Source: a virus
Direction: 5' to 3' (one strand)
Virus record (IMG/VR): IMGVR_UViG_3300027782_000032
Coordinates: 64,001-128,000 of that record
DNA length: 64,000 nucleotides
The notes under the pieces are model-generated. The model saw only the letters and a program-made list of their open reading frames with translations. It was not told where the DNA came from and did not search any database. A program made the position numbers and the translations under genes. Of the stretch, positions 10,289-56,522 are shown one piece after another (the stretch's first letter is position 1; every line of letters begins with the position of its first letter).

Positions 10289-10337
10289 TGATAGCTAAAA
10301 AAAACACCTCCATGTTCCTAAGAACTGGAGGTGTTTT
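10289..10337. terminator. Bidirectional intrinsic terminator T1 with conserved AGCTATCA tail (minus sense)
   Basis: AAAACACCTCC...GGAGGTGTTTT stem with T-tracts on both sides, between convergent nrdJ and a small ORF. Confidence 0.85.
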
Positions 10338-10339
10338 GT

Positions 10340-10453
10340 TTATTTCACTAGCATTACCCAGGTCTGAGTTATCATAAGCACAGCTAGAAACGCTATAAGC
10401 GAAAATGGTAGAAACAAAAACACAATCTCATCTACCGTATAATTCTTCATCAT
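10340..10453 (-). CDS. 37-aa single-pass membrane peptide (MMKNYTVDEIVFLFLPFSLIAFLAVLMITQTWVMLVK)
   Basis: Below the ORF-track cutoff; GGAG RBS; sole ORF between promoter P1 and terminator T1. Confidence 0.65.
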   Translation of the reverse strand: MMKNYTVDEIVFLFLPFSLIAFLAVLMITQTWVMLVK

Positions 10454-10519
10454 AATCTCCAAGTTAGATATAAAATTAAGAACTCTTACTGAGCTCCTGA
10501 ACACTATTGTATTCAATTC

Positions 10520-10547
10520 ATTATGACACGTTTATGGCCTGAATTAA
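10520..10547 (-). promoter_or_regulatory. Cassette promoter P1 (TTAATTCA-N12-GTCATAAT)
   Basis: One of nine 28-bp copies upstream of small genes; promoter role inferred from -35/-10-like boxes and position. Confidence 0.75.
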
Positions 10548-10556
10548 GGGGGTGTC

Positions 10557-10605
10557 TAATAGCTAAAAAAAGCACCTTCAAACCCCTAAGGGCTGAAGGT
10601 GCTTT
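10557..10605 (-). terminator. Intrinsic terminator T2 with AGCTATTA tail
   Basis: AAAGCACCTTCA...TGAAGGTGCTTT stem plus T-tract after the 164-aa gene. Confidence 0.85.
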
Positions 10606-10613
10606 GGTTAGAT

Positions 10614-11108
10614 CTAGTTTGCAAAAACTTTTCCAGCTTTTGCGTACTTGATTGTAGCTGAGGCGTTTATAGCCTTAAGCGACAGCTGTAGATCCGGTGG
10701 CATCACCGCCAGCTTAGCCCACTGTGGGCTAGTGGATGAGAATGCCTTAGCTGCATCTTTACCAAAGTGGTAAAGTACAGTCTCATCAAAACTATCATTA
10801 GCTAGCTCTGCGGCTAACTCATCCGACGGAAGACGATGAGTCTTGTCGAAAAAGCTAGCCTTAAAACTATCGATGTACGCCACTACATACGCCTTCTTCA
10901 CGGCATCGTAAGCCGACTCCTGCGGAGCCACTTCAATCGCCACCTCAGGCTCTACTGCAGGAGTAGCCTCAGGCTCCTCAAGCAACCTTAAAGCCATTTC
11001 TGAAGCAGCTGCCGATGCCTTCCTATCTGTGTATACCTTACCAAAAACTAGAATTGAGCATACAGAGACCACAGAAATCACAGCCCAAAAAACCTTATTA
11101 GTATTCAT
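10614..11108 (-). CDS. Hypothetical membrane-anchored protein (cassette gene)
   Basis: 164 aa, N-terminal hydrophobic helix, AAAGGAG RBS. Confidence 0.75.
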   Translation of the reverse strand: MNTNKVFWAVISVVSVCSILVFGKVYTDRKASAAASEMALRLLEEPEATPAVEPEVAIEVAPQESAYDAVKKAYVVAYIDSFKASFFDKTHRLPSDELAAELANDSFDETVLYHFGKDAAKAFSSTSPQWAKLAVMPPDLQLSLKAINASATIKYAKAGKVFAN

Positions 11109-11204
11109 GGTTATTTCTCCTTTAATGAGATGGCCACCACAGCCAGTTAATTACAACAGTGCAAGAACTCTTACTGAGCTCCTGAACACTATTGTATTCA
11201 ACTC
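11109..11204 (-). ncRNA. Putative structured 5' leader RNA, copy A (near-identical copy at 45245-45337, partial copy at 10478-10519)
   Basis: About 19-bp interrupted stem (11152-11196) plus a small GGCU/GGCC hairpin before the RBS; most differences between copies keep pairing. Confidence 0.55.
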
Positions 11205-11232
11205 ATTATGACGCAGTTTTGGCCTGAATTAA
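11205..11232 (-). promoter_or_regulatory. Cassette promoter P2
   Basis: TTAATTCAGGCCAAAACTGCGTCATAAT. Confidence 0.75.
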
Positions 11233-11238
11233 GCCCTG

Positions 11239-12012
11239 CTAGTCTATAGGCTTATTTAGATAGGTATCGCATATAAACCCTATGGAGTAACCCTTGTTAA
11301 GTTTGGTAACTACGGTTGTACGGCTTATTCCAAGGTACTTAGCCCAATCCGTCACAGTCATGTCCTTGCCGTTGTACTCATAGGTCTTATGAGTACGTAC
11401 CATATAAGATACTGGGTTTAGGGCTATCTCATCTCCGCTGTATCCTTGATTGTAAAGAAACACGGCTCTGTCATAGTTTAAACCTAGTAGCTTTACCAGA
11501 GCACCAAGCTTCATCGGCTTTCCTAAATATACTAAATCTCTAGACTTGTGCTCTAAAAGCTCTGGGTTTAGGGCGTCCTCTAAGGAAAACCCTCTGGCAA
11601 GCCTAGTAGCTGCTGTGTCGTAGTTTATATTCAAGTCCTTGCAAACCACAGACAATGGAAGCTGCACGCCGTTGTGTTCAACCATATGATTGCTGGTCTT
11701 GTTAAGAGCTTGAAGTGGAATCTTTATCCACTCCATGTTGCCGCATACATACCCTTCGTTATTGTCTATTCTTTCTATGCTGTATTCAGTCTTGGGCTCT
11801 GGGCACACTCCAACCTCGTTAAGAAAGTTTAGAAAGCTATACCTATACAAGTCTCCTACTCCAATACCCCTGCCTCCGTAGTTAGCATACCTATGGTGGT
11901 TAGGATTGTAGCACTTGGCGTTTATTCTCTGCCATGTCCTATACTCCTTTACATACTTAGCTCCCTTGGTGCTAGAGCCTCTTACGTCTCTAGCTGTGAA
12001 TGTGCCCTTCAT
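11239..12012 (-). CDS. Free-standing HNH-family (homing-type) endonuclease with three C-terminal HTH-like repeats
   Basis: CYNPNHHRYANYGGRGI...SIERIDNNEGYVCGNMEW; three G...L/I....RL/KL..GxS repeats. Start moved to ATG 12012 because of AGGAGG at 12021-12026. Confidence 0.82.
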   Translation of the reverse strand: MKGTFTARDVRGSSTKGAKYVKEYRTWQRINAKCYNPNHHRYANYGGRGIGVGDLYRYSFLNFLNEVGVCPEPKTEYSIERIDNNEGYVCGNMEWIKIPLQALNKTSNHMVEHNGVQLPLSVVCKDLNINYDTAATRLARGFSLEDALNPELLEHKSRDLVYLGKPMKLGALVKLLGLNYDRAVFLYNQGYSGDEIALNPVSYMVRTHKTYEYNGKDMTVTDWAKYLGISRTTVVTKLNKGYSIGFICDTYLNKPID

Positions 12013-12025
12013 AAGAGTATCCTCC

Positions 12026-12064
12026 TGATAGCTAAAAAAAGGCCAGAGCATAATGCTCCGGCCT
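12026..12064 (-). terminator. Intrinsic terminator T3 with AGCTATCA tail
   Basis: AGGCCGGAGCA-TTA-TGCTCTGGCCT-TTTTTT-AGCTATCA. Confidence 0.85.
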
Positions 12065-12068
12065 AGGT

Positions 12069-12233
12069 TTACCAGCTCCTTCGAACTGTCACAGATAAGT
12101 GTACCTTATCTATGATCTTGTCGTCCCACGGGCATGCCGTGGTACTGTAGGTACTCTCAACCGAATGAGAAACCTTAGGCGCACATCTGCATCCAGCAGC
12201 TGACAACACCAATACCAAAATTAAAATCCTCAT
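12069..12233 (-). CDS. 54-aa putative lipoprotein (MRILILVLVLSAAGC...)
   Basis: Below the ORF-track cutoff; AAGGAG RBS; basic-hydrophobic-lipobox signal; sole ORF between P3 and T3. Confidence 0.7.
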   Translation of the reverse strand: MRILILVLVLSAAGCRCAPKVSHSVESTYSTTACPWDDKIIDKVHLSVTVRRSW

Positions 12234-12268
12234 CGTAGCACTCCTTTGTTAGATGTAGAATCCATGTA

Positions 12269-12296
12269 ATTATGACGCAAAGACGCTATGGATTAA
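12269..12296 (-). promoter_or_regulatory. Cassette promoter P3
   Basis: TTAATCCATAGCGTCTTTGCGTCATAAT. Confidence 0.72.
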
Positions 12297-12303
12297 GGGT
12301 CGT

Positions 12304-12894
12304 CTACTTCTTTACAAAAGCCCACGAACTGTCTTTAAAGTACCTTATGTTTTCTTTTTTAAATATTTCGTCTACTGCTCTGCCTACGTCAGGCATGCAA
12401 TAGTCATGGCCTGCTATTAAGCCTCCAACCTTTACTTTGTCAGACCAAGCTTGTATGTCAGCTTTAACACTGTCATATGAGTGGTCTGCATCAATGTAGA
12501 CCATATCAATAGTTTCTTTACCAAACTCTTTTGCTAAAACCTCAGACTTAACTTTATGTTCAATTATGTTGTGGTTTCTAGACTTTGTATCTAAAAATTC
12601 TTTGTATATTACAGGAGCCATACTAGGGCTAATATACTCCTCCCAAATGTCACAACATACAACAACCCCAGCGTACTGAGCCATTAGCTCTGCAGAAGCT
12701 CCAGCGTAGCTTCCTACCTCTACAATCTTCCATCCTCTAGTTACTCTATAGTAATCAAGTAAATCTTTTAATCCAAACAGCCTGTTTATTGAAGGCATCT
12801 CTTCGTTAAAATAGTGATCGCTAGGTAAGTTAATAATCCTATACCTGTGTACTACTTTGTCAGCTAAGTTTTTAGTGTCATTATGATACGGCAT
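12304..12894 (-). CDS. Class I SAM-dependent methyltransferase (Methyltransf_24-like)
   Basis: VEVGSYAGAS; DMVYIDADHSYDSVKADI; GGLIAGHDY. Confidence 0.85.
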   Translation of the reverse strand: MPYHNDTKNLADKVVHRYRIINLPSDHYFNEEMPSINRLFGLKDLLDYYRVTRGWKIVEVGSYAGASAELMAQYAGVVVCCDIWEEYISPSMAPVIYKEFLDTKSRNHNIIEHKVKSEVLAKEFGKETIDMVYIDADHSYDSVKADIQAWSDKVKVGGLIAGHDYCMPDVGRAVDEIFKKENIRYFKDSSWAFVKK

Positions 12895-12923
12895 TACTTG
12901 AGTCTCCTTATAGTCTGTTGTTA

Positions 12924-13487
12924 CTACCTAAAAGGCGGACCTTCGTACCAAGTAACCAAGCTGTATCTAGTGCCTTTAGTAACTGGAGTAACCCTATGTT
13001 TTAGAAATGAAGGAAACACTAAAGTGTTACCCCTAGCGCGCATGTGCTCTGGCTTAGGAGGTTGAGAAGTGTTTAGTTGAAACTCAAAGTCTCCACCTTC
13101 ATAGTCTGCTGGGTCTGACAACTGTAGCACAAATGACAGCTTTCTTTGAGTGTTTTGACCGTTCCTAGGTAGCCACACTATGTCTTCGTGCCATCCATAG
13201 TGTCCTTTGTTTTCAGCTTGGTACTCTGTAAACTGAACCTCATAGAAAAAGTTGAGGTCAAATCCAAAAGAAGTATTGGCTCTTTTGCATACGTTGTCTA
13301 TGTCTGTGTAAAGCCACTGCCAGTCTGCAGCGTTCCTGTCTAGCCATCTTACTTTAGACGTTCTAAGGTCAGGCACTTGGCCGTACGTAGTAGCCTCTAC
13401 TGGAGTAATAGTAAGCGCTTGAGTGATTATGTTGTTACACTTTTCTGGTGAAGCATAGTTGTGCCACAGCTGCCACATAGATTGCAT
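12924..13487 (-). CDS. 2OG-Fe(II) oxygenase (prolyl-hydroxylase-like)
   Basis: WHED (HxD), RKLSFVLQLSDPADYEGGDF, FPSFLKHRVTPVTKGTRYSLVTW. Confidence 0.9.
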   Translation of the reverse strand: MQSMWQLWHNYASPEKCNNIITQALTITPVEATTYGQVPDLRTSKVRWLDRNAADWQWLYTDIDNVCKRANTSFGFDLNFFYEVQFTEYQAENKGHYGWHEDIVWLPRNGQNTQRKLSFVLQLSDPADYEGGDFEFQLNTSQPPKPEHMRARGNTLVFPSFLKHRVTPVTKGTRYSLVTWYEGPPFR

Positions 13488-13629
13488 CGTATCTCCTTTT
13501 CGTTAGACCCCGCTATTTAAGCTTAACGGTAGTCCTAAGTCAATAACAAGGGTGATACTACTAGCCAATAAAATACACTATTGTTATTATGCCTACTTGC
13601 TTAGTAACTACAAACTAGTGGATTGTTTT

Positions 13630-14304
13630 ATGGAATATAACGAATACTTTATCAAACGAATTAATAGGTATCAGTACGCTATTAATACGTATCCTAACAC
13701 AATGAATGATGAGCGAGGTGAAGCCTTAAGTAAGCTAGACTTGTTCGAGGGATGTAAATCTTTAGATCTAGGCAACAGCGGCCTAATGAACTTTACCAGC
13801 ATAGACTTTGAATTTAAGAAGCTTCCATTTGAAGACAAGTCATTTGACAGAGTTGTGATCATGGCAGTGCTGCATCATATATCAGTAGAGAATCGTGAGA
13901 TCCTGTACAAAGAGTGTATGCGTATCCTTAAGCAAGGTGGAAAGCTTGTGGTATCTGATGTTATTAAAGATTCGAAACAAGCCTACTGGCTTAATAACAT
14001 AGTAGACAAGTACAACAGCATAGGTCACAAAGGATTATTCTTTGATAAGTCAGATGAAGAGCTATTTAGGAAAACCGGATTTGATGTAAGAAGTGAAGTT
14101 GCTTCTTACTTCTGGTACTTCAAAAATAAGTCTGAACTAGAAGACTTTATAACTAACCTGTTTGGAATGGATCTAGCTGATAGCGTGTACGACATAGTTA
14201 ATGAGCACCTTGGGCTGAGCCCACACGGAGAAGAAGGGTTTAAATTTGAATGGAAGCTCATCTACTTTATAGCCACTTGTCCCCTAACTCTTTTTCAAGA
14301 TTAA
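13630..14304 (+). CDS. Class I SAM-dependent methyltransferase (Methyltransf_11-like)
   Basis: LPFEDKSFDRVVIMAVLHHI...CMRILKQGGKLVVSD. Start uncertain (ORF track gives 13552). Confidence 0.8.
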   Translation: MEYNEYFIKRINRYQYAINTYPNTMNDERGEALSKLDLFEGCKSLDLGNSGLMNFTSIDFEFKKLPFEDKSFDRVVIMAVLHHISVENREILYKECMRILKQGGKLVVSDVIKDSKQAYWLNNIVDKYNSIGHKGLFFDKSDEELFRKTGFDVRSEVASYFWYFKNKSELEDFITNLFGMDLADSVYDIVNEHLGLSPHGEEGFKFEWKLIYFIATCPLTLFQD

Positions 14305-15028
14305 CATTTCCTGTAAATGAAATATAGCCACCAGATGGAGTAAAGGTGTACTCGCTAAAGTAGATCTTGTCAGGCGATAGGTAAAAATCAATACGGACAA
14401 ACTCAAAAGGAGCTGATAGCTTTGCTGCAAACTCAAGCATCTTGTCCAAATCAGGCGGCTTCTGAATAAAGATAGATAGTCTATACTTTGGTAAGTTAGG
14501 CGATTCAACCCACTTTAAGCTATAGTTATTTTGCTTATTTCCTAGCTTAACTCCTATGCTAATAGGCTCTCCGTTTACACATCTAATCATATATACTATG
14601 GCGTCGCCTGTCTTATCAAGCAGGCGGTCTTGAATCTTATCTTCTATAAAGAATCTAGGCTCTATGAATGAGTAGTGCTTCTCAATAGAGTATGACTTGT
14701 ACTTCTGATTCCAGTGTGTAAGTTTTTTATTTATTATTCTTAAAATAGACATGCGACTAAAGTCGTTATTCCACTTTGAACCATGAGTTGACTTCAAAAT
14801 ATGATTTGGATTTATATCTTCCTGCTTAAGATCTTTGTAATCAGAAAGCACTCGTACTACCCGTGGTATCTCAAGCTCTGGGCATTGAGCCTTCGCTAGC
14901 TCCTTTGCAACAAGCTTGTCTGCGTACTTTGCATGCTCAGAAGTAAGCTGCTCTCCATATAGCTTTATCTTTTCATAAAATAATAGTGAAGACCAGTTGT
15001 CTGGCTTTATCATTCTATCGATGCTCAT
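14267..15028 (-). CDS. TupA-like ATP-grasp protein
   Basis: ILKSTHGS, IEPRFFIED, FVRIDFY...IYFSEYTFTPSGG. Start ATG 15028 chosen because it abuts the upstream stop. Confidence 0.8.
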   Translation of the reverse strand: MSIDRMIKPDNWSSLLFYEKIKLYGEQLTSEHAKYADKLVAKELAKAQCPELEIPRVVRVLSDYKDLKQEDINPNHILKSTHGSKWNNDFSRMSILRIINKKLTHWNQKYKSYSIEKHYSFIEPRFFIEDKIQDRLLDKTGDAIVYMIRCVNGEPISIGVKLGNKQNNYSLKWVESPNLPKYRLSIFIQKPPDLDKMLEFAAKLSAPFEFVRIDFYLSPDKIYFSEYTFTPSGGYISFTGNVNLEKELGDKWL

Positions 15029-15030
15029 AG

Positions 15031-16133: not shown

Positions 16134-16187
16134 TGTTACTCCGACCGGGTATTAACCCGGTTATGGGTTACACCGAACTACCAACAT

Positions 16188-16201
16188 TGGAGACGTCTCC
16201 A
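16188..16201. repeat. Iterated palindrome copy 2 (intergenic, just after the stop of a KLKKNR-tail gene)
   Basis: Read directly from the sequence. Confidence 0.95.
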
Positions 16202-16204
16202 CTA

Positions 16205-17113: not shown

Positions 17114-17161
17114 AGTAACCTCCTTACTTTTATCTAGTCACCTAAAACTTAGTAAAGTAAT

Positions 17162-17944: not shown

Positions 17945-17954
17945 TTTATTCTCC

Positions 17955-18845: not shown

Positions 18846-18856
18846 AGTCTTATCTC

Positions 18857-19753: not shown

Positions 19754-19764
19754 ATTATTATCTC

Positions 19765-20706: not shown

Positions 20707-20707
20707 G

Positions 20708-41756: not shown

Positions 41757-42095
41757 CTAGTGTTGTTGTCCCATGTTGAGTTTCATAAGCGTCAACCCAG
41801 CCGCTACTAATAACGAACCTAGGACAACATACTTATTAACATTAAGCCCATAAAATACAAGTGGAACTATGTAATCAATAGATATTACCGAGAACTCCCA
41901 GCAAAGGCTAAACAAAAAGATGCGCTCTTTGTTGTCTACAAACCTGACACCAAGTACCCACAATGTGGATACGAGTAACCCTACCCCTATAGATAGAATA
42001 GGATAATACCAAGCGTTTCTGATTAGGTCGGTGTAGCAGAAGATTAGGGAAGAGGTATAAAGCACCATAACTGCAAGAATGATTAACCATTCCAT
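41757..42095 (-). CDS. Small four-TM membrane protein (SMR/DMT-like)
   Basis: 112 aa, four hydrophobic helices, last one LGSLLVAAGLTLM. Confidence 0.6.
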   Translation of the reverse strand: MEWLIILAVMVLYTSSLIFCYTDLIRNAWYYPILSIGVGLLVSTLWVLGVRFVDNKERIFLFSLCWEFSVISIDYIVPLVFYGLNVNKYVVLGSLLVAAGLTLMKLNMGQQH

Positions 42096-42153
42096 AGTCT
42101 AAGCACCTCAATAAAAGAGTTAACTATAATGGTACCCTATAACTGGCTATGGC

Positions 42154-42189
42154 TGATAGCTAAAAAAAGAGCAGTTTAACGTCCTGCTC
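42154..42189 (-). terminator. Terminator T4 with AGCTATCA tail (near-identical to T8)
   Basis: GAGCAG-9nt-CTGCTC followed by a T-tract and AGCTATCA. Confidence 0.75.
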
Positions 42190-42200
42190 AGGACGGGTGG

Positions 42201-42590
42201 TTAGTAAGAAGGAGATTGAACTCTTCTCTCTATTCGTTCCCAAGCACCATCGTGCAAATCAACGTCGTAAGCTGATACAGCGTTGATAATTGCCTTAGAC
42301 AGAGACTTAGAGTCTCTACCGAAGTTGATGTTTATACGATGCTTTGTGACAGCTATTATAACATTCCCTGGTGTTATGACCATTACCTCCCATGGAGCTA
42401 GGTCAACCACCTGTGCCCAAGTATCCGAAAACAGCTTCCATTCTTCCGTCACTACTCTGAGACGTCCTTTGAAGTCGTCAAAGTCATGACTTGGGTTATA
42501 TTCCCCTGCAATTGAAGCCATGTGATTTGCCACCGACTGGAACACGTCGTTTATGTTCGCTTCGTTTAATCCAATGTTCAATATGTACAT
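42201..42590 (-). CDS. Hypothetical protein (cassette gene)
   Basis: 129 aa, AAGGAG RBS, between P4 and T4. Confidence 0.75.
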   Translation of the reverse strand: MYILNIGLNEANINDVFQSVANHMASIAGEYNPSHDFDDFKGRLRVVTEEWKLFSDTWAQVVDLAPWEVMVITPGNVIIAVTKHRININFGRDSKSLSKAIINAVSAYDVDLHDGAWERIERRVQSPSY

Positions 42591-42682
42591 AACTCTATCT
42601 CCTTAAAATATAAACATGCAAACACAGCCAACGAAAAGTTCGTAGGACTGCTCACGTTTTTACAGGTACGTGTAACCACTAT

Positions 42683-42710
42683 ATTATGACGCACTTATGG
42701 GTTGGATTAA
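42683..42710 (-). promoter_or_regulatory. Cassette promoter P4
   Basis: TTAATCCAACCCATAAGTGCGTCATAAT. Confidence 0.78.
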
Positions 42711-42711
42711 G

Positions 42712-42725
42712 TGGAGACGTCTCCA
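42712..42725. repeat. Iterated palindrome copy 6 (directly upstream of the P4 -35-like box)
   Basis: Read directly from the sequence. Confidence 0.95.
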
Positions 42726-42730: not shown

Positions 42731-42762
42731 TGATAGCTAAAAAAAAGCAGGATGATCCTGCT
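42731..42762 (-). terminator. Terminator T5 with AGCTATCA tail
   Basis: AGCAGGA-TCA-TCCTGCT followed by a T-tract and AGCTATCA. Confidence 0.85.
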
Positions 42763-42768: not shown

Positions 42769-43146
42769 TTACCCCTCTTGACCAACGACTCCCCACAGAC
42801 TGAAAGGAGAAATCTCCTTCCACTCGGTAATGTCGTTTGACCGCATGGGCTTCCACCCATTTGCACGGTCCAAGCACATGGTAATGTGCTTGCGGACGTT
42901 CCGACTAGGAACGTCCGTATCGACTTCAACGGCCATTACGCCGTCGAGTCGACCGACACGAACTACTTTTAGTTCGTGTCGTTGACCATTGAGATCCTGT
43001 GCCATACTGTTACATATGGGAAGAAGGTCAACGGTCATATGGTGGCATATGACCTCGAAGTGTTTGGGCACTTCGAGGTTTGCGTGCATCCACGCCACCA
43101 AGATGGATACACTGTCCTTTTCAAGGACGCAAGCCGTGTAGGCCAT
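42769..43146 (-). CDS. 2H-phosphoesterase-like protein (cassette gene)
   Basis: Two HxT motifs (CHHMTV, KHITM) about 50 aa apart; C-terminal KPMRSNDITEW. Start moved to 43146 with AGGAG RBS. Confidence 0.7.
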   Translation of the reverse strand: MAYTACVLEKDSVSILVAWMHANLEVPKHFEVICHHMTVDLLPICNSMAQDLNGQRHELKVVRVGRLDGVMAVEVDTDVPSRNVRKHITMCLDRANGWKPMRSNDITEWKEISPFSLWGVVGQEG

Positions 43147-43212
43147 TTTTAGTCTCCTAAAAATAAGACGAGGCGCCATCTATTTGATGACTGGTACCTA
43201 TACTTGCACCTT

Positions 43213-43240
43213 ATTATGACACACTTATGGGTTGGATTAA
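43213..43240 (-). promoter_or_regulatory. Cassette promoter P5
   Basis: TTAATCCAACCCATAAGTGTGTCATAAT. Confidence 0.78.
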
Positions 43241-43241: not shown

Positions 43242-43255
43242 TGGAGACGTCTCCA
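43242..43255. repeat. Iterated palindrome copy 7 (directly upstream of P5)
   Basis: Read directly from the sequence. Confidence 0.95.
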
Positions 43256-43260: not shown

Positions 43261-43305
43261 TGATAGCTAAAAAAAGACCAACAGCATAAAGCTGATGGTC
43301 TTTTT
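43261..43305 (-). terminator. Terminator T6 with AGCTATCA tail
   Basis: AAAAAGACCA...TGGTCTTTTT stem with T-tracts. Confidence 0.85.
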
Positions 43306-43320: not shown

Positions 43321-44118
43321 CTACTTGCAGGTTCTGCACACTCTGAAGCAAAGTCGTGTACGGTCATCTCTGCCGAACCAGCCTTCTGATTCGGTTGGAA
43401 ACATAGATTTGTCATATCCGCCTGATAGAACTACCACTCTTTTCCATTCTATAGCATCAAGATTAGGCACCTTGATCGTAGTTTCCTTATATTTAGTTAC
43501 TTTATACCTTTTATAACCAAGCTTCTTTCCTGCTCCACCTGCAATACATTTAATCTCCTCTCCTGGCTGAGGGCCCTTAGGGTTATATTTAGGTATTTCA
43601 ATACCAGTAGGTGCTCCAGGGTACTCTTCGCTTACCTCTAAGTTCTCTAGGCCTGGGATCCCTGTAGTGTAGTTGCAGCTGTTAAACCGAGACCACGATT
43701 TACCATTCCAGTGGTGGTAACAATAGCTAGAGTACCCTTCATAGCTATAATCCTGACACCACTCGCCTATGGGGTGACTTCTTCGGGCAGTACCTAAAAC
43801 AGAACGTACCCAGGTAAGCTCCAACTCAGCCTGAGTTGGTAGCCTAAATACTGACTTGTTTATCCTACTTTTATTTAGCCGGGTTATGAACTCCTGGCAA
43901 TCATACCAAGACACGCTGGTTATAGGGTCGTCATGGTTTGCGTTCCAAGGGATAGTCTCAGTAGACCACCACTTTCCAGATTTAGTCCTGTTCATACCCA
44001 GCTCATACCACCTCTTTATAGTTATCATAGGTGATATAGCAAACTCTGATACTATTACTGGGTGTCTATACCATCTATCTATAAAACTTCCTTTAAATCT
44101 AACTAGAGTAGACATCAT
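43321..44118 (-). CDS. Divergent FGE-sulfatase (SUMF1/C-type-lectin fold) domain protein (cassette gene)
   Basis: PITSVSWYDCQEF, FRLPTQAELE, GEWCQD, C-terminal CFRVCR; AGGAGG RBS. Confidence 0.72.
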   Translation of the reverse strand: MMSTLVRFKGSFIDRWYRHPVIVSEFAISPMITIKRWYELGMNRTKSGKWWSTETIPWNANHDDPITSVSWYDCQEFITRLNKSRINKSVFRLPTQAELELTWVRSVLGTARRSHPIGEWCQDYSYEGYSSYCYHHWNGKSWSRFNSCNYTTGIPGLENLEVSEEYPGAPTGIEIPKYNPKGPQPGEEIKCIAGGAGKKLGYKRYKVTKYKETTIKVPNLDAIEWKRVVVLSGGYDKSMFPTESEGWFGRDDRTRLCFRVCRTCK

Positions 44119-44191
44119 ACCTCCTGCTTAACAGCGTCAAAGAATAGCTCTCTGACCAGCCCCCGTTTTTACAGGTACGGGTAACCATTAT

Positions 44192-44219
44192 ATTATGACG
44201 CGTTTATAAGACCAATTAA
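44192..44219 (-). promoter_or_regulatory. Cassette promoter P6
   Basis: TTAATTGGTCTTATAAACGCGTCATAAT. Confidence 0.72.
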
Positions 44220-44238: not shown

Positions 44239-44283
44239 TGATAGCTAAAAAAGAAACACACCATGCCCGAAGGCATGATGTGA
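44239..44283 (-). terminator. Terminator T7 with AGCTATCA tail
   Basis: CATGCC-TTCG-GGCATG stem followed by a T-rich tract and AGCTATCA. Confidence 0.75.
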
Positions 44284-44291
44284 TCCTTGAA

Positions 44292-44609
44292 TTACGCAAT
44301 CCTTCTTGGGGATTGCTTGATCCACTGCACGACCTCATCCCAGCTCTCGCTGGAGAATTGGTCTTGCTGTGAGTTTGACGACATGTACATACAGCATGAG
44401 TCATCCCAGTCGTTAAGCAACACACAGCTGAACTGCTGCGACTCGGTGTCACAGTCAACCATAACACCGCAGAGTCGCTTAGTACTCTTAATCTGGGCAG
44501 AGCTGCTGCCGTATCCAACCACACGTTTGAACCCTGCTCTACGCAGGGAGTCAGACAGTTTAACGCAGGGCAATAAAGATCTTACTAAAGTAGTCACGAG
44601 AACCTCCAT
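44292..44609 (-). CDS. Hypothetical protein (cassette gene)
   Basis: 105 aa between P7 and T7; exact start uncertain. Confidence 0.6.
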   Translation of the reverse strand: MEVLVTTLVRSLLPCVKLSDSLRRAGFKRVVGYGSSSAQIKSTKRLCGVMVDCDTESQQFSCVLLNDWDDSCCMYMSSNSQQDQFSSESWDEVVQWIKQSPRRIA

Positions 44610-44674
44610 GTAGCTAATAATAACGCAGGCGATGAACTTTAGAGCTCATCTACTAATACCTACGTATACACCTC

Positions 44675-44702
44675 ATTATGACGCACTTATTGGTTGAATT
44701 AA
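44675..44702 (-). promoter_or_regulatory. Cassette promoter P7
   Basis: TTAATTCAACCAATAAGTGCGTCATAAT. Confidence 0.78.
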
Positions 44703-44828: not shown

Positions 44829-44864
44829 TGATAGCTAAAAAAAGAGCAGTTTAACGTCCTGCTC
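44829..44864 (-). terminator. Terminator T8 (near-identical to T4)
   Basis: About 50-bp duplication of 42154-42203. Confidence 0.75.
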
Positions 44865-44875: not shown

Positions 44876-45244
44876 CTAAGCGACTATGTCGGACCAGCCT
44901 CTCAAGTCTGAACGATGTGAAGAAGACTTAGTGGCTATTGCACACAGTTCTTCTACGTCGTTACCGTTAAGGAAAGCTGAGACAAACTTCACCACTCCCG
45001 TCCATGAGTACAACCTGTACTCATAGTCGGCTGGAACACCGCTCAAACCCAAGCTGTCGACTAGTCTTGGACCGCATAGAAACGTAGTGACTAAATATCT
45101 CCCGTCGTCATCCGCCTCAGCCACCAACGCAGATCTATTGGACTCTACGCTAGGAGCAATTAAAGCAGACGAGTAGCTCCTTGACTTTCTAATCTGGTCT
45201 TTAAAGCCTGGTAAATTAGCGTGTAGTTTCTCAATAATAGTCAT
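44876..45244 (-). CDS. Hypothetical protein (cassette gene, MTIIEKLHAN...)
   Basis: Start moved to 45244: AAAGGAGAAATAACCATG, identical to the 11108 start context. The ORF-track extension runs through the leader and into the promoter. Confidence 0.75.
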   Translation of the reverse strand: MTIIEKLHANLPGFKDQIRKSRSYSSALIAPSVESNRSALVAEADDDGRYLVTTFLCGPRLVDSLGLSGVPADYEYRLYSWTGVVKFVSAFLNGNDVEELCAIATKSSSHRSDLRGWSDIVA

Positions 45245-45337
45245 GGTTATTTCTCCTTTAATGAGGGCTACCACAGCCGGTAAGTACAACAGTGCAAGCG
45301 CTCTTACTGAGCTCCTGAACACTATCGTATTCAACTC
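45245..45337 (-). ncRNA. Putative structured 5' leader RNA, copy B
   Basis: Near-identical to 11109-11204; long stem at 45285-45329. Confidence 0.55.
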
Positions 45338-45365
45338 ATTATGACGCACTTATGGGTTGGATTAA
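45338..45365 (-). promoter_or_regulatory. Cassette promoter P8
   Basis: TTAATCCAACCCATAAGTGCGTCATAAT (identical to P4). Confidence 0.78.
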
Positions 45366-45366: not shown

Positions 45367-45380
45367 TGGAGACGTCTCCA
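45367..45380. repeat. Iterated palindrome copy 8 (directly upstream of P8)
   Basis: Read directly from the sequence. Confidence 0.95.
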
Positions 45381-45448: not shown

Positions 45449-45814
45449 TTAAGCCTTGATGCCGCCTATGTCTGTACGCACAATGTCGTGCTCAGATAGC
45501 TCAGACCAATAGATCTCCAAAGCTTCAGTCTCTTCTATAGCTTCGAACTTATGGTTCAAGCCAGGCGGTATCTTAATGCACTCGGTAGGTCTAAGAATGA
45601 TGGTGCTTTTTATAGTACCGTCTGGGTTGTAGCAGCTGACCATCAGCTTACCCGAGACTATATAGAATTGATTCCACTTGTGCTGGTGAAAGTGATTAGA
45701 GCAGTATCCACCTTTGAGAATATGTATGTGGCAGATTTGAAAGGAGTTGTCTAAATGAATGATATGGTTTCGGCCCCATAACTTCTCCTCTTGTCTTACA
45801 GCTAGAACATCCAT
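45449..45814 (-). CDS. Cupin (sugar isomerase-like)
   Basis: KLWG, CSNHFHQHKWNQF, HKFEA. Confidence 0.8.
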   Translation of the reverse strand: MDVLAVRQEEKLWGRNHIIHLDNSFQICHIHILKGGYCSNHFHQHKWNQFYIVSGKLMVSCYNPDGTIKSTIILRPTECIKIPPGLNHKFEAIEETEALEIYWSELSEHDIVRTDIGGIKA

Positions 45815-46858: not shown

Positions 46859-46868
46859 ACTGGGCCTA

Positions 46869-49763: not shown

Positions 49764-49772
49764 TGATCACCG

Positions 49773-50537: not shown

Positions 50538-50606
50538 AGCTTGTTCCTTAGTCCAGCAAAGTTAACTTAGCGAGCTCCTTAGTTAACGCAAACGCGTTTC
50601 CGTGAA

Positions 50607-51985: not shown

Positions 51986-52008
51986 GCTATACCTTTCTTT
52001 TTAAAAGT

Positions 52009-52536
52009 TTAATCTACATCTACTAAGCTATCAGACATTGCTAACTTAGGTGCATCGCTAGTTCTTACTCCGTCTATATATACAGCACACCAAAAGTTAT
52101 AGCCATCCTTACTACAAGACCTACCCATTCCAAATTGAGTATAGTCGCCTAGAATGATGGGTCTATGAGTTAAAGAGTTGAACCAAGTCTTCATAACTGC
52201 TGATGGGTCATCAGTCATGGAGAATGATATGCACTCTCCTATGTTGGAAGGCTCTTCTCCAACTATAGTTAGCCTCTGAGAAGGCCCAAAGAAGCTAAAG
52301 CCTAAATGAGAAACAGATTGTGTATTAGCCATCCACACAGCATGAGCCTGAGCGACTGTGCAGCAGCTCTCACTAATGACTAACGGAGCTAGGTCGTACA
52401 CGCTCCTAGTCTTGTTGTGTAGGTCCAACATTGTATTGCACTCTTTGCTAGTTGGCATGTCTGCATCCCTGCCTTGCTTGCGCCTCGATGATACATCGAA
52501 GAGCATGCTTAAGAAGCTACTGATCACATTCATCAC
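52009..52536 (-). CDS. CAP (SCP/Tpx/PR-1) domain protein
   Basis: LHNKTR...LAPL...AQAHAVWM...SH...WFNSLTHRPII. Confidence 0.85.
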   Translation of the reverse strand: MMNVISSFLSMLFDVSSRRKQGRDADMPTSKECNTMLDLHNKTRSVYDLAPLVISESCCTVAQAHAVWMANTQSVSHLGFSFFGPSQRLTIVGEEPSNIGECISFSMTDDPSAVMKTWFNSLTHRPIILGDYTQFGMGRSCSKDGYNFWCAVYIDGVRTSDAPKLAMSDSLVDVD

Positions 52537-54440
52537 ATAACCCCATATTGCTGCTGTAGTATAGATCTAGCACCTGCTGTCTGAGCCTGTTGTCTGATGT
52601 TGCCTATAGTCTGCTTAACCAAGCTGTGAATAACTGGGTCTTGAGACTTGAGCTTAGTCATCTCAGATTGCCTCTGAGACTCAGGCATGGACATCAGCTG
52701 GTCTGCAAGTGTTTGAGCCTTTGACTGCAAATCTTGAGGCGTTACTTTCTGGTTAGGAGATGTAGGCGTAGCTAACGACATACCTTGAGCTGCTGCTCCA
52801 GCTGCTCCAGCCGGAGGAGCCTGCCCTGGAGCAGGAGGAGCTCCATAGCCTGGAGGCTGCTGGCCTTCTTGTCCTTGCTGTCCTTGCTGTATCTGATCTA
52901 TAACAGGAGGAGCCATTTGCTCCATTAGTGCAGACTGATCCATATCCTCTTGCATCTTAGCCTGCTCTTCTTGTTTAAACCTTTCTTCTTCCATCATCTG
53001 ACGCTGCTCATCCTTGAAGTTGAGCCCAAGGCTTCTGAGAACGCCTGTCTGACTTACCTGCTGTGACTGCATCAACTGCATCTTGGACATGATAAGCTGT
53101 ACATCGTCTAGAATGCTTGGCCTAATCAGTTTGCATACTGCAGGCTCCCATCCAAACGCGTCGCCTATGTCCTTAGTTAACTGCCTCAGGAATGCGTTTA
53201 GGCAATGCACTAGATAGTACCAGCTAGACTCAAACAGCCTAATAGCTGGAAGAGCAGCTTGAAGATTCAATGTGCCACGATATAACTCTGCAGGCATACC
53301 AAACCCGTTGAGCAACATGTTGATGCCTGACTCTAATAGATCGTTAGGTGCTAGGTTCTTAGCCTCTCCACCTAGCGATTGATACTGAATAGGAGTGCTA
53401 AGGAAGTGCCACGCTGCTGGGTCTTTCCTTCTCTTCCTAAGCATGGCTTGGACCTGTCCTCTAAGACCTCCTAAGTCCATGTTCATTAAAGGGTCTCCAC
53501 CTTCTGGCAGGGAGCTAGACTGCGGCTGAGGGCTTAGAACCCTAAACGGAATAACGTAGTCCAATGCTATAGCTTCATTGTATCTGTGAAGAACTTGGCA
53601 ATACCAAGCGTGTCTGAAGTTAACCAGAGTTCTAGAGATGCCCCAACCTCTAGACCTTACGCCTGAAAGGGTTGGTTCGTACATATGGTGAATAGCGCCT
53701 TTATCAAACAATAAGAAGCCATTAGCTGCTACTGCCTCTACAATCTCCCATGGTACAGTTTCAAGTACCTGTGGATCTCCTCTTCTTACCTGCATTCTAT
53801 AGTCCTCTGGTATACGCCAGAGGTAGTCTCGGTTATCGCGTACAGGGTCGTGCCTGATCTCCATCTCTACTGCAGGCCATCTTCTTACTCTTACTTCGTC
53901 TATCTCGTTGGTTCTTCTGTCTGTTCTTTTCCAAATGCCTGTGTACTTACACTTAGGGCAGTTAGCGCTAAAGTCTGGCATCTTCCACTTAAATGCGAAG
54001 TTAGAGTTATTGATAACTTCCTTAAGTGGAACATCAAGGAAGCATTGAGGACAGGCAAGATAACGCCTGAACGGTACAACAAGCGTAGTAAAGCTATTAC
54101 CATAACATAAGAAGTCCAAGCCTACAGAGTGGAGAATAGTTCTTATGTCTAAGGTCTCGTTCAAGAAAGTCTCGTACTTTTCTCTCTCGTCGTCGCCTAT
54201 GTTCTTGTTGCCTACGCCCTTGATCTCTATCTCGGTTATAAAATAGCTGAGAATACGCCTAGCGGCTTCTCTGATCATTGAGTTGGAATTGAATATGAAC
54301 TCGCAATAGCGTAGAGCGTCGCGTATGTTCTCTGGCATTACGGTGCTAGCGTAATCCATGAATGGGTCTGGAAACGGCTCATCACCCCTATTGTTAAGGG
54401 CCCATCCTCTACCTAACGCACCTTCAGAGTAATCAGACAT
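52533..54440 (-). CDS. Probable portal protein with an inserted zinc ribbon and a Gln/Pro-rich tail
   Basis: 635 aa; DFLCYGNSF resembles the portal D-x3-x-GN motif; CPQC...CPKC insert. Call is by pattern recall. Confidence 0.55.
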   Translation of the reverse strand: MSDYSEGALGRGWALNNRGDEPFPDPFMDYASTVMPENIRDALRYCEFIFNSNSMIREAARRILSYFITEIEIKGVGNKNIGDDEREKYETFLNETLDIRTILHSVGLDFLCYGNSFTTLVVPFRRYLACPQCFLDVPLKEVINNSNFAFKWKMPDFSANCPKCKYTGIWKRTDRRTNEIDEVRVRRWPAVEMEIRHDPVRDNRDYLWRIPEDYRMQVRRGDPQVLETVPWEIVEAVAANGFLLFDKGAIHHMYEPTLSGVRSRGWGISRTLVNFRHAWYCQVLHRYNEAIALDYVIPFRVLSPQPQSSSLPEGGDPLMNMDLGGLRGQVQAMLRKRRKDPAAWHFLSTPIQYQSLGGEAKNLAPNDLLESGINMLLNGFGMPAELYRGTLNLQAALPAIRLFESSWYYLVHCLNAFLRQLTKDIGDAFGWEPAVCKLIRPSILDDVQLIMSKMQLMQSQQVSQTGVLRSLGLNFKDEQRQMMEEERFKQEEQAKMQEDMDQSALMEQMAPPVIDQIQQGQQGQEGQQPPGYGAPPAPGQAPPAGAAGAAAQGMSLATPTSPNQKVTPQDLQSKAQTLADQLMSMPESQRQSEMTKLKSQDPVIHSLVKQTIGNIRQQAQTAGARSILQQQYGVM

Positions 54441-54479
54441 TGTAAGATAGGCCTCCTGCCTCGTTACTATATTTAAGTA

Positions 54480-55241
54480 TTAAAGGACGCCTTCTTCTAT
54501 AACCTTTGCAGGGTCGACGTCTCTTTTGCTAGCTCTATCATCATACTCTTTTTGTGGAGACGTCTCCACTGGCTTATCTTCAACAAGCTCTTGTATTAGT
54601 TCAGCCGGCATAGACTTCTCTTGAGAGATTGGAACCAAGCAATGCTCGTAAGGTCCAAACTTGTGCTGAAGAATAGGAGGTTTAACTATAAACAAGCTGT
54701 CTATACCTTCTACCATCACCCCTATGTAAGCGTCAGCCTCGTTAGCTAGTTTGCTGGTAAACGGATAAAACTCTCCAGGCCCTGCATACCTCATATCAGT
54801 TGTAAGCACTAGATACCCTGGGGTTATTGTAGCACCGTGATACTTGTAGTTTAAAGTTGCTAAGCTTGGCATGTCAAAGTACACCCTTACCATAGGAGGT
54901 GTAACTGATGCCTCTGGCAGCTGTGCTGCAGGATGAACATGATTAGCACCATCAATCGTAGATGCTACCGTGCCTAGACTAGGAGGAGTAGTAGCAGATG
55001 CAGTAGTAGAGAATCGCCTTAAGTTATCAGATATCATCTTGGACCTTTCTGCTTGAGCAAGTTTTCTAAGGTCCTGACTATTGTCATCTTTGACCTTGTA
55101 AGGATTGGCTGTTGGCTTAATAGTATTTAAATCAATAACAAAGGAGTCACTCTCGTGCGGGTCTACTATCATCTTGGTAACTGATCTGCTGTGGTCTATA
55201 GTAGACCCTCCTGTTACTGGTGCTAGTCTTGAATCTGACAT
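54480..55241 (-). CDS. Hypothetical protein
   Basis: Start moved to 55241 (AAGGA RBS); contains the palindrome (VETSPQ). Confidence 0.7.
   Translation of the reverse strand: MSDSRLAPVTGGSTIDHSRSVTKMIVDPHESDSFVIDLNTIKPTANPYKVKDDNSQDLRKLAQAERSKMISDNLRRFSTTASATTPPSLGTVASTIDGANHVHPAAQLPEASVTPPMVRVYFDMPSLATLNYKYHGATITPGYLVLTTDMRYAGPGEFYPFTSKLANEADAYIGVMVEGIDSLFIVKPPILQHKFGPYEHCLVPISQEKSMPAELIQELVEDKPVETSPQKEYDDRASKRDVDPAKVIEEGVL
54555..54568. repeat. Iterated palindrome copy 9 (in CDS)
   Basis: Read directly from the sequence. Confidence 0.95.
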
Positions 55242-55316
55242 TAGTGAATCCTTCCTAAGTTTAACTCTACTGTAACCTAACACAGCGTTTTACTGTTTAT
55301 AAGGATAATAAGCAAC

Positions 55317-55454
55317 ATGATATCTTACGAAGAAGTAGATATATATAAGTTTTTTAGCCTACTGCTTATCGTAGCGGCTGTCTACCTATTAGCTCTAGGT
55401 ATACCTATTATACTTGATATCTTATTGTCAGATCCTTTTGACGACCATAGCTGA
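55317..55454 (+). CDS. 45-aa single-pass membrane peptide (MISYEEVDIYKFFSLLLIVAAVYLLALGIPIILDILLSDPFDDHS)
   Basis: Below the ORF-track cutoff; AAGGA upstream; its TGA stop is part of the T9 tail. Confidence 0.5.
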   Translation: MISYEEVDIYKFFSLLLIVAAVYLLALGIPIILDILLSDPFDDHS

Positions 55455-55503
55455 TAGCTAAAAAAAACAATCCGACGCCCTCCTAAGAGGGAATCGGATT
55501 GTG
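55452..55503 (-). terminator. Terminator T9 with AGCTATCA tail
   Basis: ACAATCCGA...TCGGATTGT long stem followed by a T-tract and AGCTATCA. Confidence 0.85.
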
Positions 55504-55507
55504 AGTT

Positions 55508-56158
55508 TTACTTGGTGACAGACTGCCGTGGCAGCCTTACCCTATTAGGCTGGAAGAACTTGTACAGCTCCTCCAGACCAAGTCCGGCAGCCTCCAAGGA
55601 GGACCTGGTAACCACCTGAGGCTTTGGTAAGCCGTCTTGATCTACGAGTCCGTCTACGCACTCGTATATTCTAGCTGGCTCAGCTAAAACCGAATCCTCC
55701 AAAATGGCGCATGGCGCCATTCTGTATGGCGCCATCAACTTGATGGAGCCAAGAAGCGCAGCCTCTAGGGCCTCTGGAGCTTCCGCACCAGAAGCTATAG
55801 AAAGAGACTCAAGACTGACGTCGTCCGAAGACGACATCATTCCGTAACCAATTGGAAGTGCAACTGCCTGAGGGATTAGATCGCCCGTATCGAACCGGTC
55901 CAAAGCCCGGTCGAACGCCCTCCTGTTGGAGGGGGATCTTTTGCAGAAAGGCCTAAAGGCCTTTCCCAGAGGATCGATTGCTTGCCTAGCCACGTACCCG
56001 TAAGGGTACGCCTTAGCCCTGGAAAACACGCCAACTACCCCGTTAGGGTAGCCGACAATAACGCCTGTTTGCCCTACAGGCAAAAAGGATTCTTTAAACC
56101 CCTCCTCCCATGCCGATGGAGTTATGGTGATTAGAGCCAAGTCCTTTAGCTGAGACAT
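55508..56158 (-). CDS. Hypothetical protein (cassette gene)
   Basis: 216 aa, AGGAG RBS. Confidence 0.72.
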   Translation of the reverse strand: MSQLKDLALITITPSAWEEGFKESFLPVGQTGVIVGYPNGVVGVFSRAKAYPYGYVARQAIDPLGKAFRPFCKRSPSNRRAFDRALDRFDTGDLIPQAVALPIGYGMMSSSDDVSLESLSIASGAEAPEALEAALLGSIKLMAPYRMAPCAILEDSVLAEPARIYECVDGLVDQDGLPKPQVVTRSSLEAAGLGLEELYKFFQPNRVRLPRQSVTK

Positions 56159-56176
56159 GCAGATACTCCTTGAAAA

Positions 56177-56458
56177 TTACTTCTTCTTTACCCATAGAAT
56201 ACTGTCCTTCGGGACAGTAAGCTGGGGCCTTGGGGCCCCTTTAGTATCGGGTCTCAGTGTGCAGGCCACTTGGCCATCACTCTGAGCCCTTCGTCGGACC
56301 ACTTCTCTGAGTGATCCTCCGTATTGGACATGTGGCCTGTAACCAGGGCCAGCACCGTCCTGGGATACCTTCCCATTTTTACCCTTTGAAAAGTTGACCC
56401 ATAAAAGGGCCACTACAAAGGAGGTCAACACAAGGCCTGCCACCGTGTTTTCAAACAT
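56177..56458 (-). CDS. Small membrane-anchored protein (cassette gene)
   Basis: N-terminal TM helix; start taken at MFENTV (56458). Confidence 0.6.
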   Translation of the reverse strand: MFENTVAGLVLTSFVVALLWVNFSKGKNGKVSQDGAGPGYRPHVQYGGSLREVVRRRAQSDGQVACTLRPDTKGAPRPQLTVPKDSILWVKKK

Positions 56459-56494
56459 GGCCGCCCCTTTCTGCCACCCATAAGGTAGCACTAT

Positions 56495-56522
56495 ATTATG
56501 ACGCGTTTAAGAGCTGGATTTA
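56495..56522 (-). promoter_or_regulatory. Cassette promoter P9
   Basis: TAAATCCAGCTCTTAAACGCGTCATAAT (variant upstream box). Confidence 0.68.

Follow-up and report, generated by a model that had tools for sequence, protein, structure and literature searches.

Why does a phage genome set the same short, repeated ends around small and unrelated genes, and do these ends take part in how the genes come and go? The question is raised by a 64,000-nucleotide stretch (the window, bases 64,001-128,000, in whose own numbering positions are given here unless a genome position or another contig is named) of the IMG/VR phage record IMGVR_UViG_3300027782_000032, a genome of 190,371 bp rated 92% complete. 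A sequence-only reading had described nine cassettes in it, each made of a promoter, one or two small genes and a tailed terminator. We consider these cassettes to be autonomous promoter-gene-terminator units of a modular system that is exchanged by recombination at its repeated ends and resembles the promoter-early stem-loops (PeSLs) of T4-type phages, an explanation to which we give a probability of about 0.75. The anatomy of the units, their conservation, their variable content and the positions of their breakpoints are read directly from the genomes compared, and a PeSL-like system is well supported in a phage lineage where none has been described before, with a promoter that is non-canonical and a terminator tail that is unexplained.

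Two motifs delimit the units. The promoter motif P (TWAAT-N15-GTCATAAT-N4-TG) has nine matches in the window, all on the minus strand, against none in 100 dinucleotide-preserving shuffles, and the terminator motif T (TTTTTTAGCTATYA) also has nine, again all on the minus strand, where 0.02 would be expected by chance, with no further copies in the 190,371-bp genome. Both sets lie where the sequence-only reading had placed them (the terminators at 10289, 10557, 12026, 42154, 42731, 43261, 44239, 44829 and 55452), and they alternate strictly in three islands of three, five and one units, here called A, B and C, as it had also said. The short gaps it had noticed between a tail and the next promoter of the five-unit island measure 19, 20 and 20 nt, and one of 9 nt is found in the three-unit island. 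Its one-to-one pairing holds for the signals and does not extend to every gene, as an HNH gene (11239-12012) lies outside any P-T unit; its 28-bp promoter is real but too short, the conserved span being 34 nt and including an invariant TG 4 nt past the -10 element. The whole-genome motif scan it had proposed adds a tenth P at genome position 183439, outside the window. A repeated composite of promoter and stem-loop, such as characterizes PeSLs, is therefore present, with nine P and nine T in the window and ten P in the genome. The features are listed island by island; ORF stands for open reading frame and SD for Shine-Dalgarno sequence.

12263..12296, minus strand: promoter P of island A unit 1 (exact motif match)
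12069..12233, minus strand: cargo ORF of 54 aa with signal peptide and lipobox-like LSAAGC (ORF list; SD AAGGAG upstream)
12026..12063, minus strand: terminator, hairpin of -17.6 kcal/mol, T7, AGCTATCA (fold and motif match)
11239..12012, minus strand: HNH homing-endonuclease-like gene between terminator 12026 and promoter 11205 (phrog_3377, E 6.5e-45)
11199..11232, minus strand: promoter P of island A unit 2 (motif match)
11105..11215, minus strand: promoter -10 and structured leader of about 100 nt (self-blastn 111 bp, 91.9%; leader fold z -4.4)
10614..11108, minus strand: cargo ORF of 164 aa with N-terminal hydrophobic segment (ORF list; without Pfam or PHROGs match)
10557..10602, minus strand: terminator, hairpin of -20.9 kcal/mol, T7, AGCTATTA (fold and motif match)
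10514..10547, minus strand: promoter P of island A unit 3, 9 nt past the preceding tail (motif match)
10340..10453, minus strand: cargo ORF of a 37-aa hydrophobic peptide (ORF list; found in this genome only, among relatives)
10289..10333, minus strand: terminator, hairpin of -17.8 kcal/mol, T8, AGCTATCA (fold and motif match)
8020-10284, plus strand: ribonucleotide reductase gene, its end convergent with terminator 10289
45449-45814: cupin-like gene bordering island B
45332..45365, minus strand: promoter P of island B unit 1, with TGGAGACGTCTCCA (45367-45380) at its -35 (motif match)
44876..45244, minus strand: cargo ORF of 122 aa, island B unit 1 (without family match; absent from relative G005)
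44829..44864, minus strand: terminator with GACGUUAAA loop, T7, AGCTATCA (98% identical to 42153-42200)
44669..44702, minus strand: promoter P of island B unit 2 (motif match)
44292..44609, minus strand: cargo Cys-rich ORF of about 100-105 aa, family f3 (ORF list; homologs in relatives)
44239..44286, minus strand: terminator, hairpin of -19.6 kcal/mol, T6, AGCTATCA (fold and motif match)
44186..44219, minus strand: promoter P of island B unit 3, 19 nt past the tail (motif match)
43321..44118, minus strand: cargo protein of 265 aa with FGE-sulfatase-type domain (Pfam PF03781, E 1.3e-6)
43261..43300, minus strand: terminator, hairpin of -13.2 kcal/mol, T7, AGCTATCA (fold and motif match)
43207..43240, minus strand: promoter P of island B unit 4, with a palindrome (43242-43255) ahead (motif match)
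42769..43146, minus strand: cargo 2H phosphoesterase of 125 aa, predicted, island B unit 4 (alignment, AlphaFold2 (AF2) model, Foldseek)
42731..42761, minus strand: terminator, hairpin, T8, AGCTATCA (fold and motif match)
42677..42710, minus strand: promoter P of island B unit 5, with a palindrome (42712-42725) ahead (motif match)
42201..42590, minus strand: cargo ORF of 129 aa, island B unit 5 (without family match; 50% homolog in relative G008)
42154..42189, minus strand: terminator, GACGUUAAA-loop module, T7, AGCTATCA, the last signal of island B (fold and motif match)
41757-42095: conserved gene of a 112-aa membrane protein, the other border of island B
56489..56522, minus strand: promoter P of island C, with the TAAAT variant of the -35 (motif match)
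56177..56458, minus strand: cargo ORF of 93 aa with N-terminal hydrophobic segment, island C (ORF list)
55508..56158, minus strand: cargo ORF of 216 aa, island C (without family match)
55452..55501, minus strand: terminator, hairpin of -22.4 kcal/mol, T8, AGCTATCA (fold and motif match)

Relatives were reached from two sides: the conserved glycosyltransferase encoded next to island B, used as a query, gave seven related viral contigs, and the terminator-promoter joint, used as a DNA pattern, was matched in eight viral contigs and, among metagenomes, in 28 stretches that belong to about 20 contigs. Overall, the motifs are present in eleven related IMG/VR contigs, eight of which the joint pattern had picked out, and in some 20 contigs of metagenomes, and the scan of relatives that had been suggested finds them in all related contigs, on the coding strand and in P-T alternation. 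What stands between the signals changes from genome to genome. Island B, always bordered by the cupin-like gene and the gene of the 112-aa membrane protein (75-98% protein identity in closer relatives, 57% in G003), has two units in G001, three each in G002 and G004, five in this genome, at least five in contig L011 and at least twelve in L089, a contig of 12.9 kb. The 122-aa protein of island B occurs in no relative, and the remaining island-B cargo proteins each occur in one to a few. In total, 102 cassettes from 31 contigs carry 45 cargo types, namely 24 shared families and 21 singletons. Hence the fixed cassette content and order across relatives that, by the sequence-only reading's own account, would speak against it are not what is found; number and content vary. 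The three islands lie between conserved genes and nine of their 11 cargo proteins have no family, as is characteristic of hyperplastic regions rich in ORFans.

The borders of these differences fall in the repeated ends. The closest relative, G005, is about 87% identical in nucleotides and lacks units 1, 3 and 4 of island B. At the first indel, it matches the context of unit 1 in this genome up to CTTAAT and then continues as unit 2; at the second, it tracks the terminator of unit 2 up to T6AGCTATCA and then passes into the joint ahead of unit 5. Both indels switch exactly in shared motif bases, with zero extra or missing nucleotides. Pairs of terminators are alike on both sides in six cases and on one side only in 27, the corresponding numbers for promoters being five and 28, and the ends of long high-scoring segment pairs between genomes cluster at P (0 to +40) and at the T tail (-50 to 0). 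The borders of indels and replacements thus lie within the motif, as they do in PeSLs, and the suggestion that modular units with conserved ends are the places where related genomes differ is borne out by the indels and by the positions of breakpoints.

Repeats of 43-111 bp at 90-100% identity connect units and islands. A promoter with its leader, 111 bp in all, is 92% identical between island A (11105..11215) and island B (45241-45348) and stands ahead of unrelated ORFs; a 64-bp terminator-promoter joint is repeated within the genome at 92% identity, and a 48-bp terminator module is likewise repeated. The shared ends measure 15-16 bp where T-run and tail are concerned and 34 bp in the promoter, and can reach 111 bp if the leader is included. 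One unit has been transferred as a whole, to judge by its close counterpart in a more distant setting: the 2H phosphoesterase unit (43275-42731) and L089 8673-9213 share 93.9% identity along 545 bp. This match extends from the T-run ahead of the unit to where the unit's tail stops, and thus spans exactly one unit, and the neighbouring units are not the same in the two genomes. Nucleotide identity in the ORF reaches 96%, or 91% if third codon positions alone are counted, as against 66% for the adjacent glycosyltransferase gene. The order of the 2H unit and the f3-family unit is reversed between this genome and L089, though the f3 copies, at only 48% identity, may be paralogs. As for the idea that the repeated ends serve as recombination joints, the breakpoints do lie inside P and inside the T-run and tail; homology-driven crossover as their cause is what we infer, together with promoter and terminator activity and the timing of expression. 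As a separate observation, protein identity of the cupin-like border gene is 95-98% across relatives that reach only 52-94% in the neighbouring glycosyltransferase, and against L089 the two genes are 93% and 66% identical in nucleotides, so that the border of island B itself seems to have been exchanged or homogenised.

The mechanism that we propose is as follows. A unit would open with a bipartite promoter of the sigma-70-family type, with a transcription start at or beside the invariant TG, and would continue with a leader that usually begins with a 5' hairpin, an SD and one or two small accessory ORFs (in some relatives probably a non-coding RNA cargo instead), to end in an intrinsic terminator of hairpin and T7-8 with the invariant tail AGCTATYA. 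Such units would lie in stacks in the three hyperplastic islands, each set among conserved core genes, and a fourth site with a promoter is found outside the window. With unrelated cargo between near-identical ends, recombination within or between phage genomes could delete, insert, duplicate or exchange whole units, and every product would keep a working promoter and terminator and remain insulated from its neighbours, as has been proposed for the PeSLs of T4-type phages.

How far does the promoter support this mechanism? An alignment of 41 P copies from eight related contigs gives the consensus CTTAATtc...atAA.tGCGTCATAAT-N4-TG, in which the core is invariant and the flanks vary. Its layout is of the sigma-70-family type, with a -35-like CTTAAT, a 16-nt spacer, a G at -14 and an extended -10 GYGTCATAAT. 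The hexamers match the consensus unequally, TTAATC agreeing with TTGACA at 3/6 positions and CATAAT with TATAAT at 5/6, and all copies have C in place of T at -12. No P is called by a generic sigma-70 scan that requires at least 4/6 in each hexamer and 9/12 in total. P always lies on the coding strand at a distance of 30-110 nt before an SD-ATG, and an SD precedes each ORF of the units in the window. The 45 nt past the TG are more structured than random 45-mers (mean z -2.2, n=32, versus -0.45), and in many units the leader hairpin begins exactly at the conserved G, which fits a transcript start there and a protective 5' stem-loop. In the tenth unit (genome 183270-183470), P is followed by two tandem AGCTAT copies, a hairpin of -33 kcal/mol, T5AGCTATT and then an operon, whose SD and 92-aa ORF come about 70 nt past T5AGCTATT; this leader, kept in G005 and G006, looks like an attenuator. 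No second promoter class was found by an intergenic k-mer search, which gave only the cassette motifs and tandem coding repeats (the latter dominated the screen, as a crude ORF caller had left them as intergenic), nor a clear one by eye in the other intergenic regions.

Several further observations concern the promoter regions. In G004 (L037 6607-6911), a P homologous to that of the tenth unit has a tRNA-Met gene about 200 nt downstream, and the other five genomes scanned have no tRNA. The palindrome TGGAGACGTCTCCA, whose core has 23 copies in the genome, abuts the -35 of three island-B promoters (42712-42725, 43242-43255 and 45367-45380), all within 2.7 kb; two are found likewise in G005 and none at a promoter of other relatives. 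Opposite two promoter-leader regions there is an antisense sigma-70-like site (TTTACA-17-TATTAT, 10/12; 42659-42687 and 44168-44196, plus strand), which may be a chance by-product of the A/T-rich -10 region.

The terminators combine a conventional part with an unconventional one. All nine in the window have a hairpin (-7.4 to -22.4 kcal/mol) followed by T6-T8, as expected of intrinsic terminators, and an independent terminator scan calls two of the five in island B. Across 38 T copies from eight related contigs, the consensus is a hairpin, T7-8 and AGCTAT(C/T)A; hairpins and flanks differ, and AGCTAT is invariant in 38/38. Strong terminators elsewhere in the genome (genome positions 37377, 45559/45585, 137212 and 168379) lack the AGCTAT tail, and therefore the tail belongs to the cassettes rather than to termination in general. 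It is present at island-final terminators, where no promoter follows, and it is conserved in G007 and G008, relatives whose promoter has drifted. A role as the upstream element of the next promoter was ruled out, given its retention at island-final terminators and a distance to P of 7-9, 19-20 or more than 100 nt. As regards the hairpins, terminators 42154-42189 and 44829-44864 are copies of one GACGUUAAA-loop module (stem GAGCAG/CUGCUC), in which an alternative helix further upstream (GUCCU/AGGAC) has bases in common with the terminator stem. Six relatives have the module as well, and its copies, compared by eye, show compensatory stem changes.

Which polymerase would read these signals? The window opens with an ORF (2-3865) for a bacterial-type RNA polymerase (RNAP) beta subunit, 31% identical to gp206 of Salmonella phage Arash, and by this subunit the closest cultured relatives are Arash and the Vibrio phages D69/D148/D181 (30-31% identity). 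Two ORFs of the sigma-70 family are present in the genome, one with a strong region 4 (Pfam E 8.6e-13) and the other with a region 3 match; the places occupied by the pair are about 157.0-157.7 kb and about 24.2-25.0 kb of the genome. In virions of Arash, RNAP beta, beta' and a sigma factor are abundant (PMC10585845). With its own RNAP and two sigma factors in the phage, early transcription by the host RNAP is not to be assumed. We lean slightly to the phage's own RNAP-sigma holoenzyme as the reader of P, because P deviates from the sigma-70 consensus at invariant positions, because its information content is very high and because the phage has sigma factors with region 3 and region 4; the host enzyme is only a little less probable. 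Early expression of the units, which the sequence-only reading had assumed, is plausible. The P motif is not found in Arash or in Vibrio phage D69 (0-1 match with one mismatch allowed, the same as in the control; the T-tail was not searched there), and therefore the cassette system is a trait of a freshwater clade and not of all RNAP-carrying relatives.

A number of points weigh against exchange at the repeated ends, and several of them would suit an account in which the ends are regulatory signals under purifying selection: illegitimate recombination could then strike anywhere, selection would keep the intact units, and the repeats would mark the joints rather than cause them. All terminators have only 15-16 bp in common, a short tract by the standards of classical homologous recombination; in the 2H cassette, the sequence from the tail to the -10 element differs between the two genomes, so that the homology at this joint is very short; and islands A and C are fairly stable, indeed much more stable than island B, though they carry the same repeats. 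Moreover, mosaic boundaries at signals would be equally expected from random crossovers followed by selection for intact signals. Such an account nevertheless has to meet the closest pair of genomes, where neither switch gained or lost a nucleotide, and repeats of 43-111 bp at 90-100% identity, which are adequate substrates for phage recombination systems; in T4-type phages, PeSL recombination products including circles have been shown experimentally (PMC2839356). We regard it as unlikely. The remaining difficulties for recombining autonomous units concern transcription, in that the starts, ends, strength and timing of the unit transcripts are all deduced from the DNA, two terminators are weak (-7.4 and -8.2 kcal/mol), the invariant tail is accounted for neither by intrinsic termination nor by the next promoter, and, if an injected polymerase had no early promoters besides the ten P copies in 190 kb, it would be unexplained how the remainder of the genome comes to be expressed.

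The tail invites a more specific, hypothetical account, in which the T-run, the palindromic core TAGCTA and the final YA form a dedicated site for a phage protein rather than a by-product of the terminator. It might be a nick or cleavage site for the resident HNH endonuclease, which would stimulate exchange where cassettes meet; a sequence-specific signal for termination that is recognized by a factor such as the SNF2 helicase of the phage, for the phage's own and possibly virion-delivered RNAP, much as the U5NU termination signal of poxviruses is read with NPH-I; or a regulator-binding site. Such a site would agree with the invariance of AGCTAT in all 38 copies while the hairpins differ completely, with its absence from the other strong terminators of the genome, with its retention at island-final terminators without a downstream promoter and in G007 and G008 despite their drifted promoter, with its tandem core in the tenth-unit leader, with crossovers that map into the tail, and with the HNH gene, which has no promoter of its own, starts 15 nt past a terminator tail that its SD AGGAGG overlaps, and is kept at the same spot in G001, G002, G006 and G003 (50-67%), that is, in at least four relatives. 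The HNH gene is confined to one island, however, and a canonical hairpin with T7-8 should terminate a bacterial-type RNAP unaided; as intrinsic termination is modulated by downstream DNA sequence, a purely kinetic role of the tail is possible as well. We hold a dedicated site to be improbable on present evidence; if it were true, the islands would be a dedicated system of cassette exchange and insulation and not a passive by-product of repeated regulatory DNA, and the cassettes of some relatives would deliver structured non-coding RNAs in place of proteins. Finally, P might be some other DNA site (operator, partition or replication site), with the small genes transcribed by read-through from upstream operons. 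Its failure in the generic sigma-70 scan and the direct contact of three copies with a genome-wide palindrome would agree with this, but P has two parts at a constant 15-nt spacing, agrees with TATAAT at 5/6 positions, and has a conserved G at -14 and a conserved TG at the expected start distance, at whose G the 5' hairpins begin; it lies on the coding strand, 30-110 nt before an SD-ATG and directly past a terminator that would block read-through, and in one relative it stands ahead of a tRNA-Met gene. This last account is very improbable.

Recombining autonomous units have their closest parallel in PeSLs, described in the T4-type phages RB49/phi1, PST/T4 and nt-1/KVP40 (Arbiol et al. 2010, PMC2839356; Comeau et al. 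2014, PMC4122927). There, too, composite modules of terminator and promoter, about 60-100 bp long, stand on either side of one ORFan or of a few genes. They accumulate in hyperplastic regions that separate conserved core blocks, border the indels and replacements by which close relatives differ, and leave each moved gene with its own promoter and terminator. The analogy drawn by the sequence-only reading is thus apt for the modular ends, the variable content and the borders in the motif; it fails at the promoter, as PeSL promoters are described as having exactly the E. coli consensus whereas P has TTAAT at -35 and C at -12, unlike the sigma-70 consensus. In addition, the present phage belongs to an Arash-related lineage with its own beta-type RNAP and sigma factors, and no T4-type Gp23 capsid (PF07068) match is found in its genome. 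A separate canonical terminator always lies upstream of the promoter here, whereas the PeSL stem-loop takes variable positions inside the promoter; the invariant 8-nt tail past the T-run has no PeSL counterpart; there are 9-10 units per genome as against about 50 PeSLs; and PeSL mini-circles have been seen experimentally, while the present system is known from sequence alone. Compared with GenBank phages, island A has zero megablast matches, and even Arash and the Vibrio phages D69/D148/D181, with genomes of about 180-190 kb and a homologous RNAP beta, offer no closer counterpart where P was searched (Arash and D69).

Two other kinds of mobile gene invite comparison. Morons of lambdoid and other temperate phages (Juhala/Hendrix) are extra genes with their own promoter and terminator between conserved genes. 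Like them, the units are independent of the surrounding operon and variably present among relatives, but morons have no common repeated promoter or terminator and are usually single and prophage-expressed, whereas here one family of ends forms stacked arrays. The phage shows no sign of lysogeny, as the joint pattern has no match in 185,579 bacterial and archaeal genomes, and by this result a prophage or moron origin was ruled out. Integron cassettes lack promoters, and it is a dedicated tyrosine recombinase (IntI) that moves them, at folded attC sites. They share with the units an arrangement in arrays of single-gene cassettes, unrelated cargo, a short conserved border site and variation in number and order; here, in contrast, each unit has its own promoter and terminator, its borders coincide with transcription signals, and no adjacent integrase with attI and promoterless attC cassettes is found. 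Pfam and PHROGs scans link no recombinase to the islands, where an HNH endonuclease gene is present (no whole-genome integrase search was made).

Published accounts of PeSL-type shuffling are confined to T4-like phages, with host sigma-70 promoters. The same solution is found here independently, in a lineage with its own bacterial-type RNAP and sigma factors, so that the architecture, with unrelated cargo set between near-identical signals, may be a general means by which large lytic phages try out accessory genes. The 34-nt promoter, with its very high information content, is a candidate recognition sequence of a phage sigma factor, and the strictly conserved terminator tail offers a further entry point into the clade. 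The 45 cargo types are enriched in ORFans, and among them is a predicted 2H phosphoesterase, a type of enzyme that serves in RNA repair or in the degradation of cyclic-nucleotide defence signals.

What, then, do the units carry? Pfam and PHROGs give no family for nine of the 11 cargo proteins, and those without a family are small and often hydrophobic. The 54-aa ORF of island A, with homologs (40-65%) at the same place in G001, G002, G006 and G003, reads as a lipoprotein; family f3 has homologs in G005, G004, L097, L087, L092 and L089, and the 265-aa FGE-sulfatase-type protein has a 68% homolog in L011. For the 216-aa protein of island C, an ESM Atlas search was empty. The 125-aa protein of island B has HHxT and HIT motifs that are invariant in 12 homologs, as in 2H phosphoesterases, and its AF2 model has a pLDDT of 96.9. 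Foldseek aligns this model with the CNPase catalytic domain (TMq 0.65-0.74, probability 1.00) and, at rank 50, with the anti-CBASS (cyclic oligonucleotide-based antiphage signalling system) nuclease Acb1; its ESM Atlas neighbours carry PF08302 (tRNA-ligase CPD domains), and a PDB sequence search with it was empty. On its motifs and model, it is a predicted minimal 2H phosphoesterase, for which a role in RNA repair or cyclic-nucleotide signal degradation is reasonable. As this is one of 11 cargo proteins, the host-takeover or anti-defence role put forward by the sequence-only reading is a plausible guess. In unrelated phages, homologs of the 125-aa protein have no P/T motifs at their flanks. 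In one unrelated phage contig of 458 kb (L081:2300-3030), the 2H homolog is flanked on both sides by a different repeat, TGATACCAACTAG with a hairpin, which suggests another lineage-specific cassette joint.

Some cassettes of relatives have no ORF, with stops throughout all three frames, namely L014:11756-12233 (= G002 63611-64108), L010 (G001 3161-3829), L012:11427-11899 and L011:11839-12385. They share a 5' hairpin GAUACCGAUAGGUAUC, two to four internal GACGUUAAA-loop hairpin modules and a GUGGAUGAAACUUCCAC hairpin, and are candidate phage non-coding RNAs carried as cargo; in Rfam, neither the window nor five loci reach the gathering score of any family, and the non-coding cassettes have no match at E<=1. 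Outside the window, the tandem coding repeats met in the k-mer search include units of about 147 nt with TTTGAAATACC...TGTCCTCA...TGTAACTAC at genome 5.2-7.0 kb and collagen-like CAAGGACC repeats at genome 0.7-1.8 kb.

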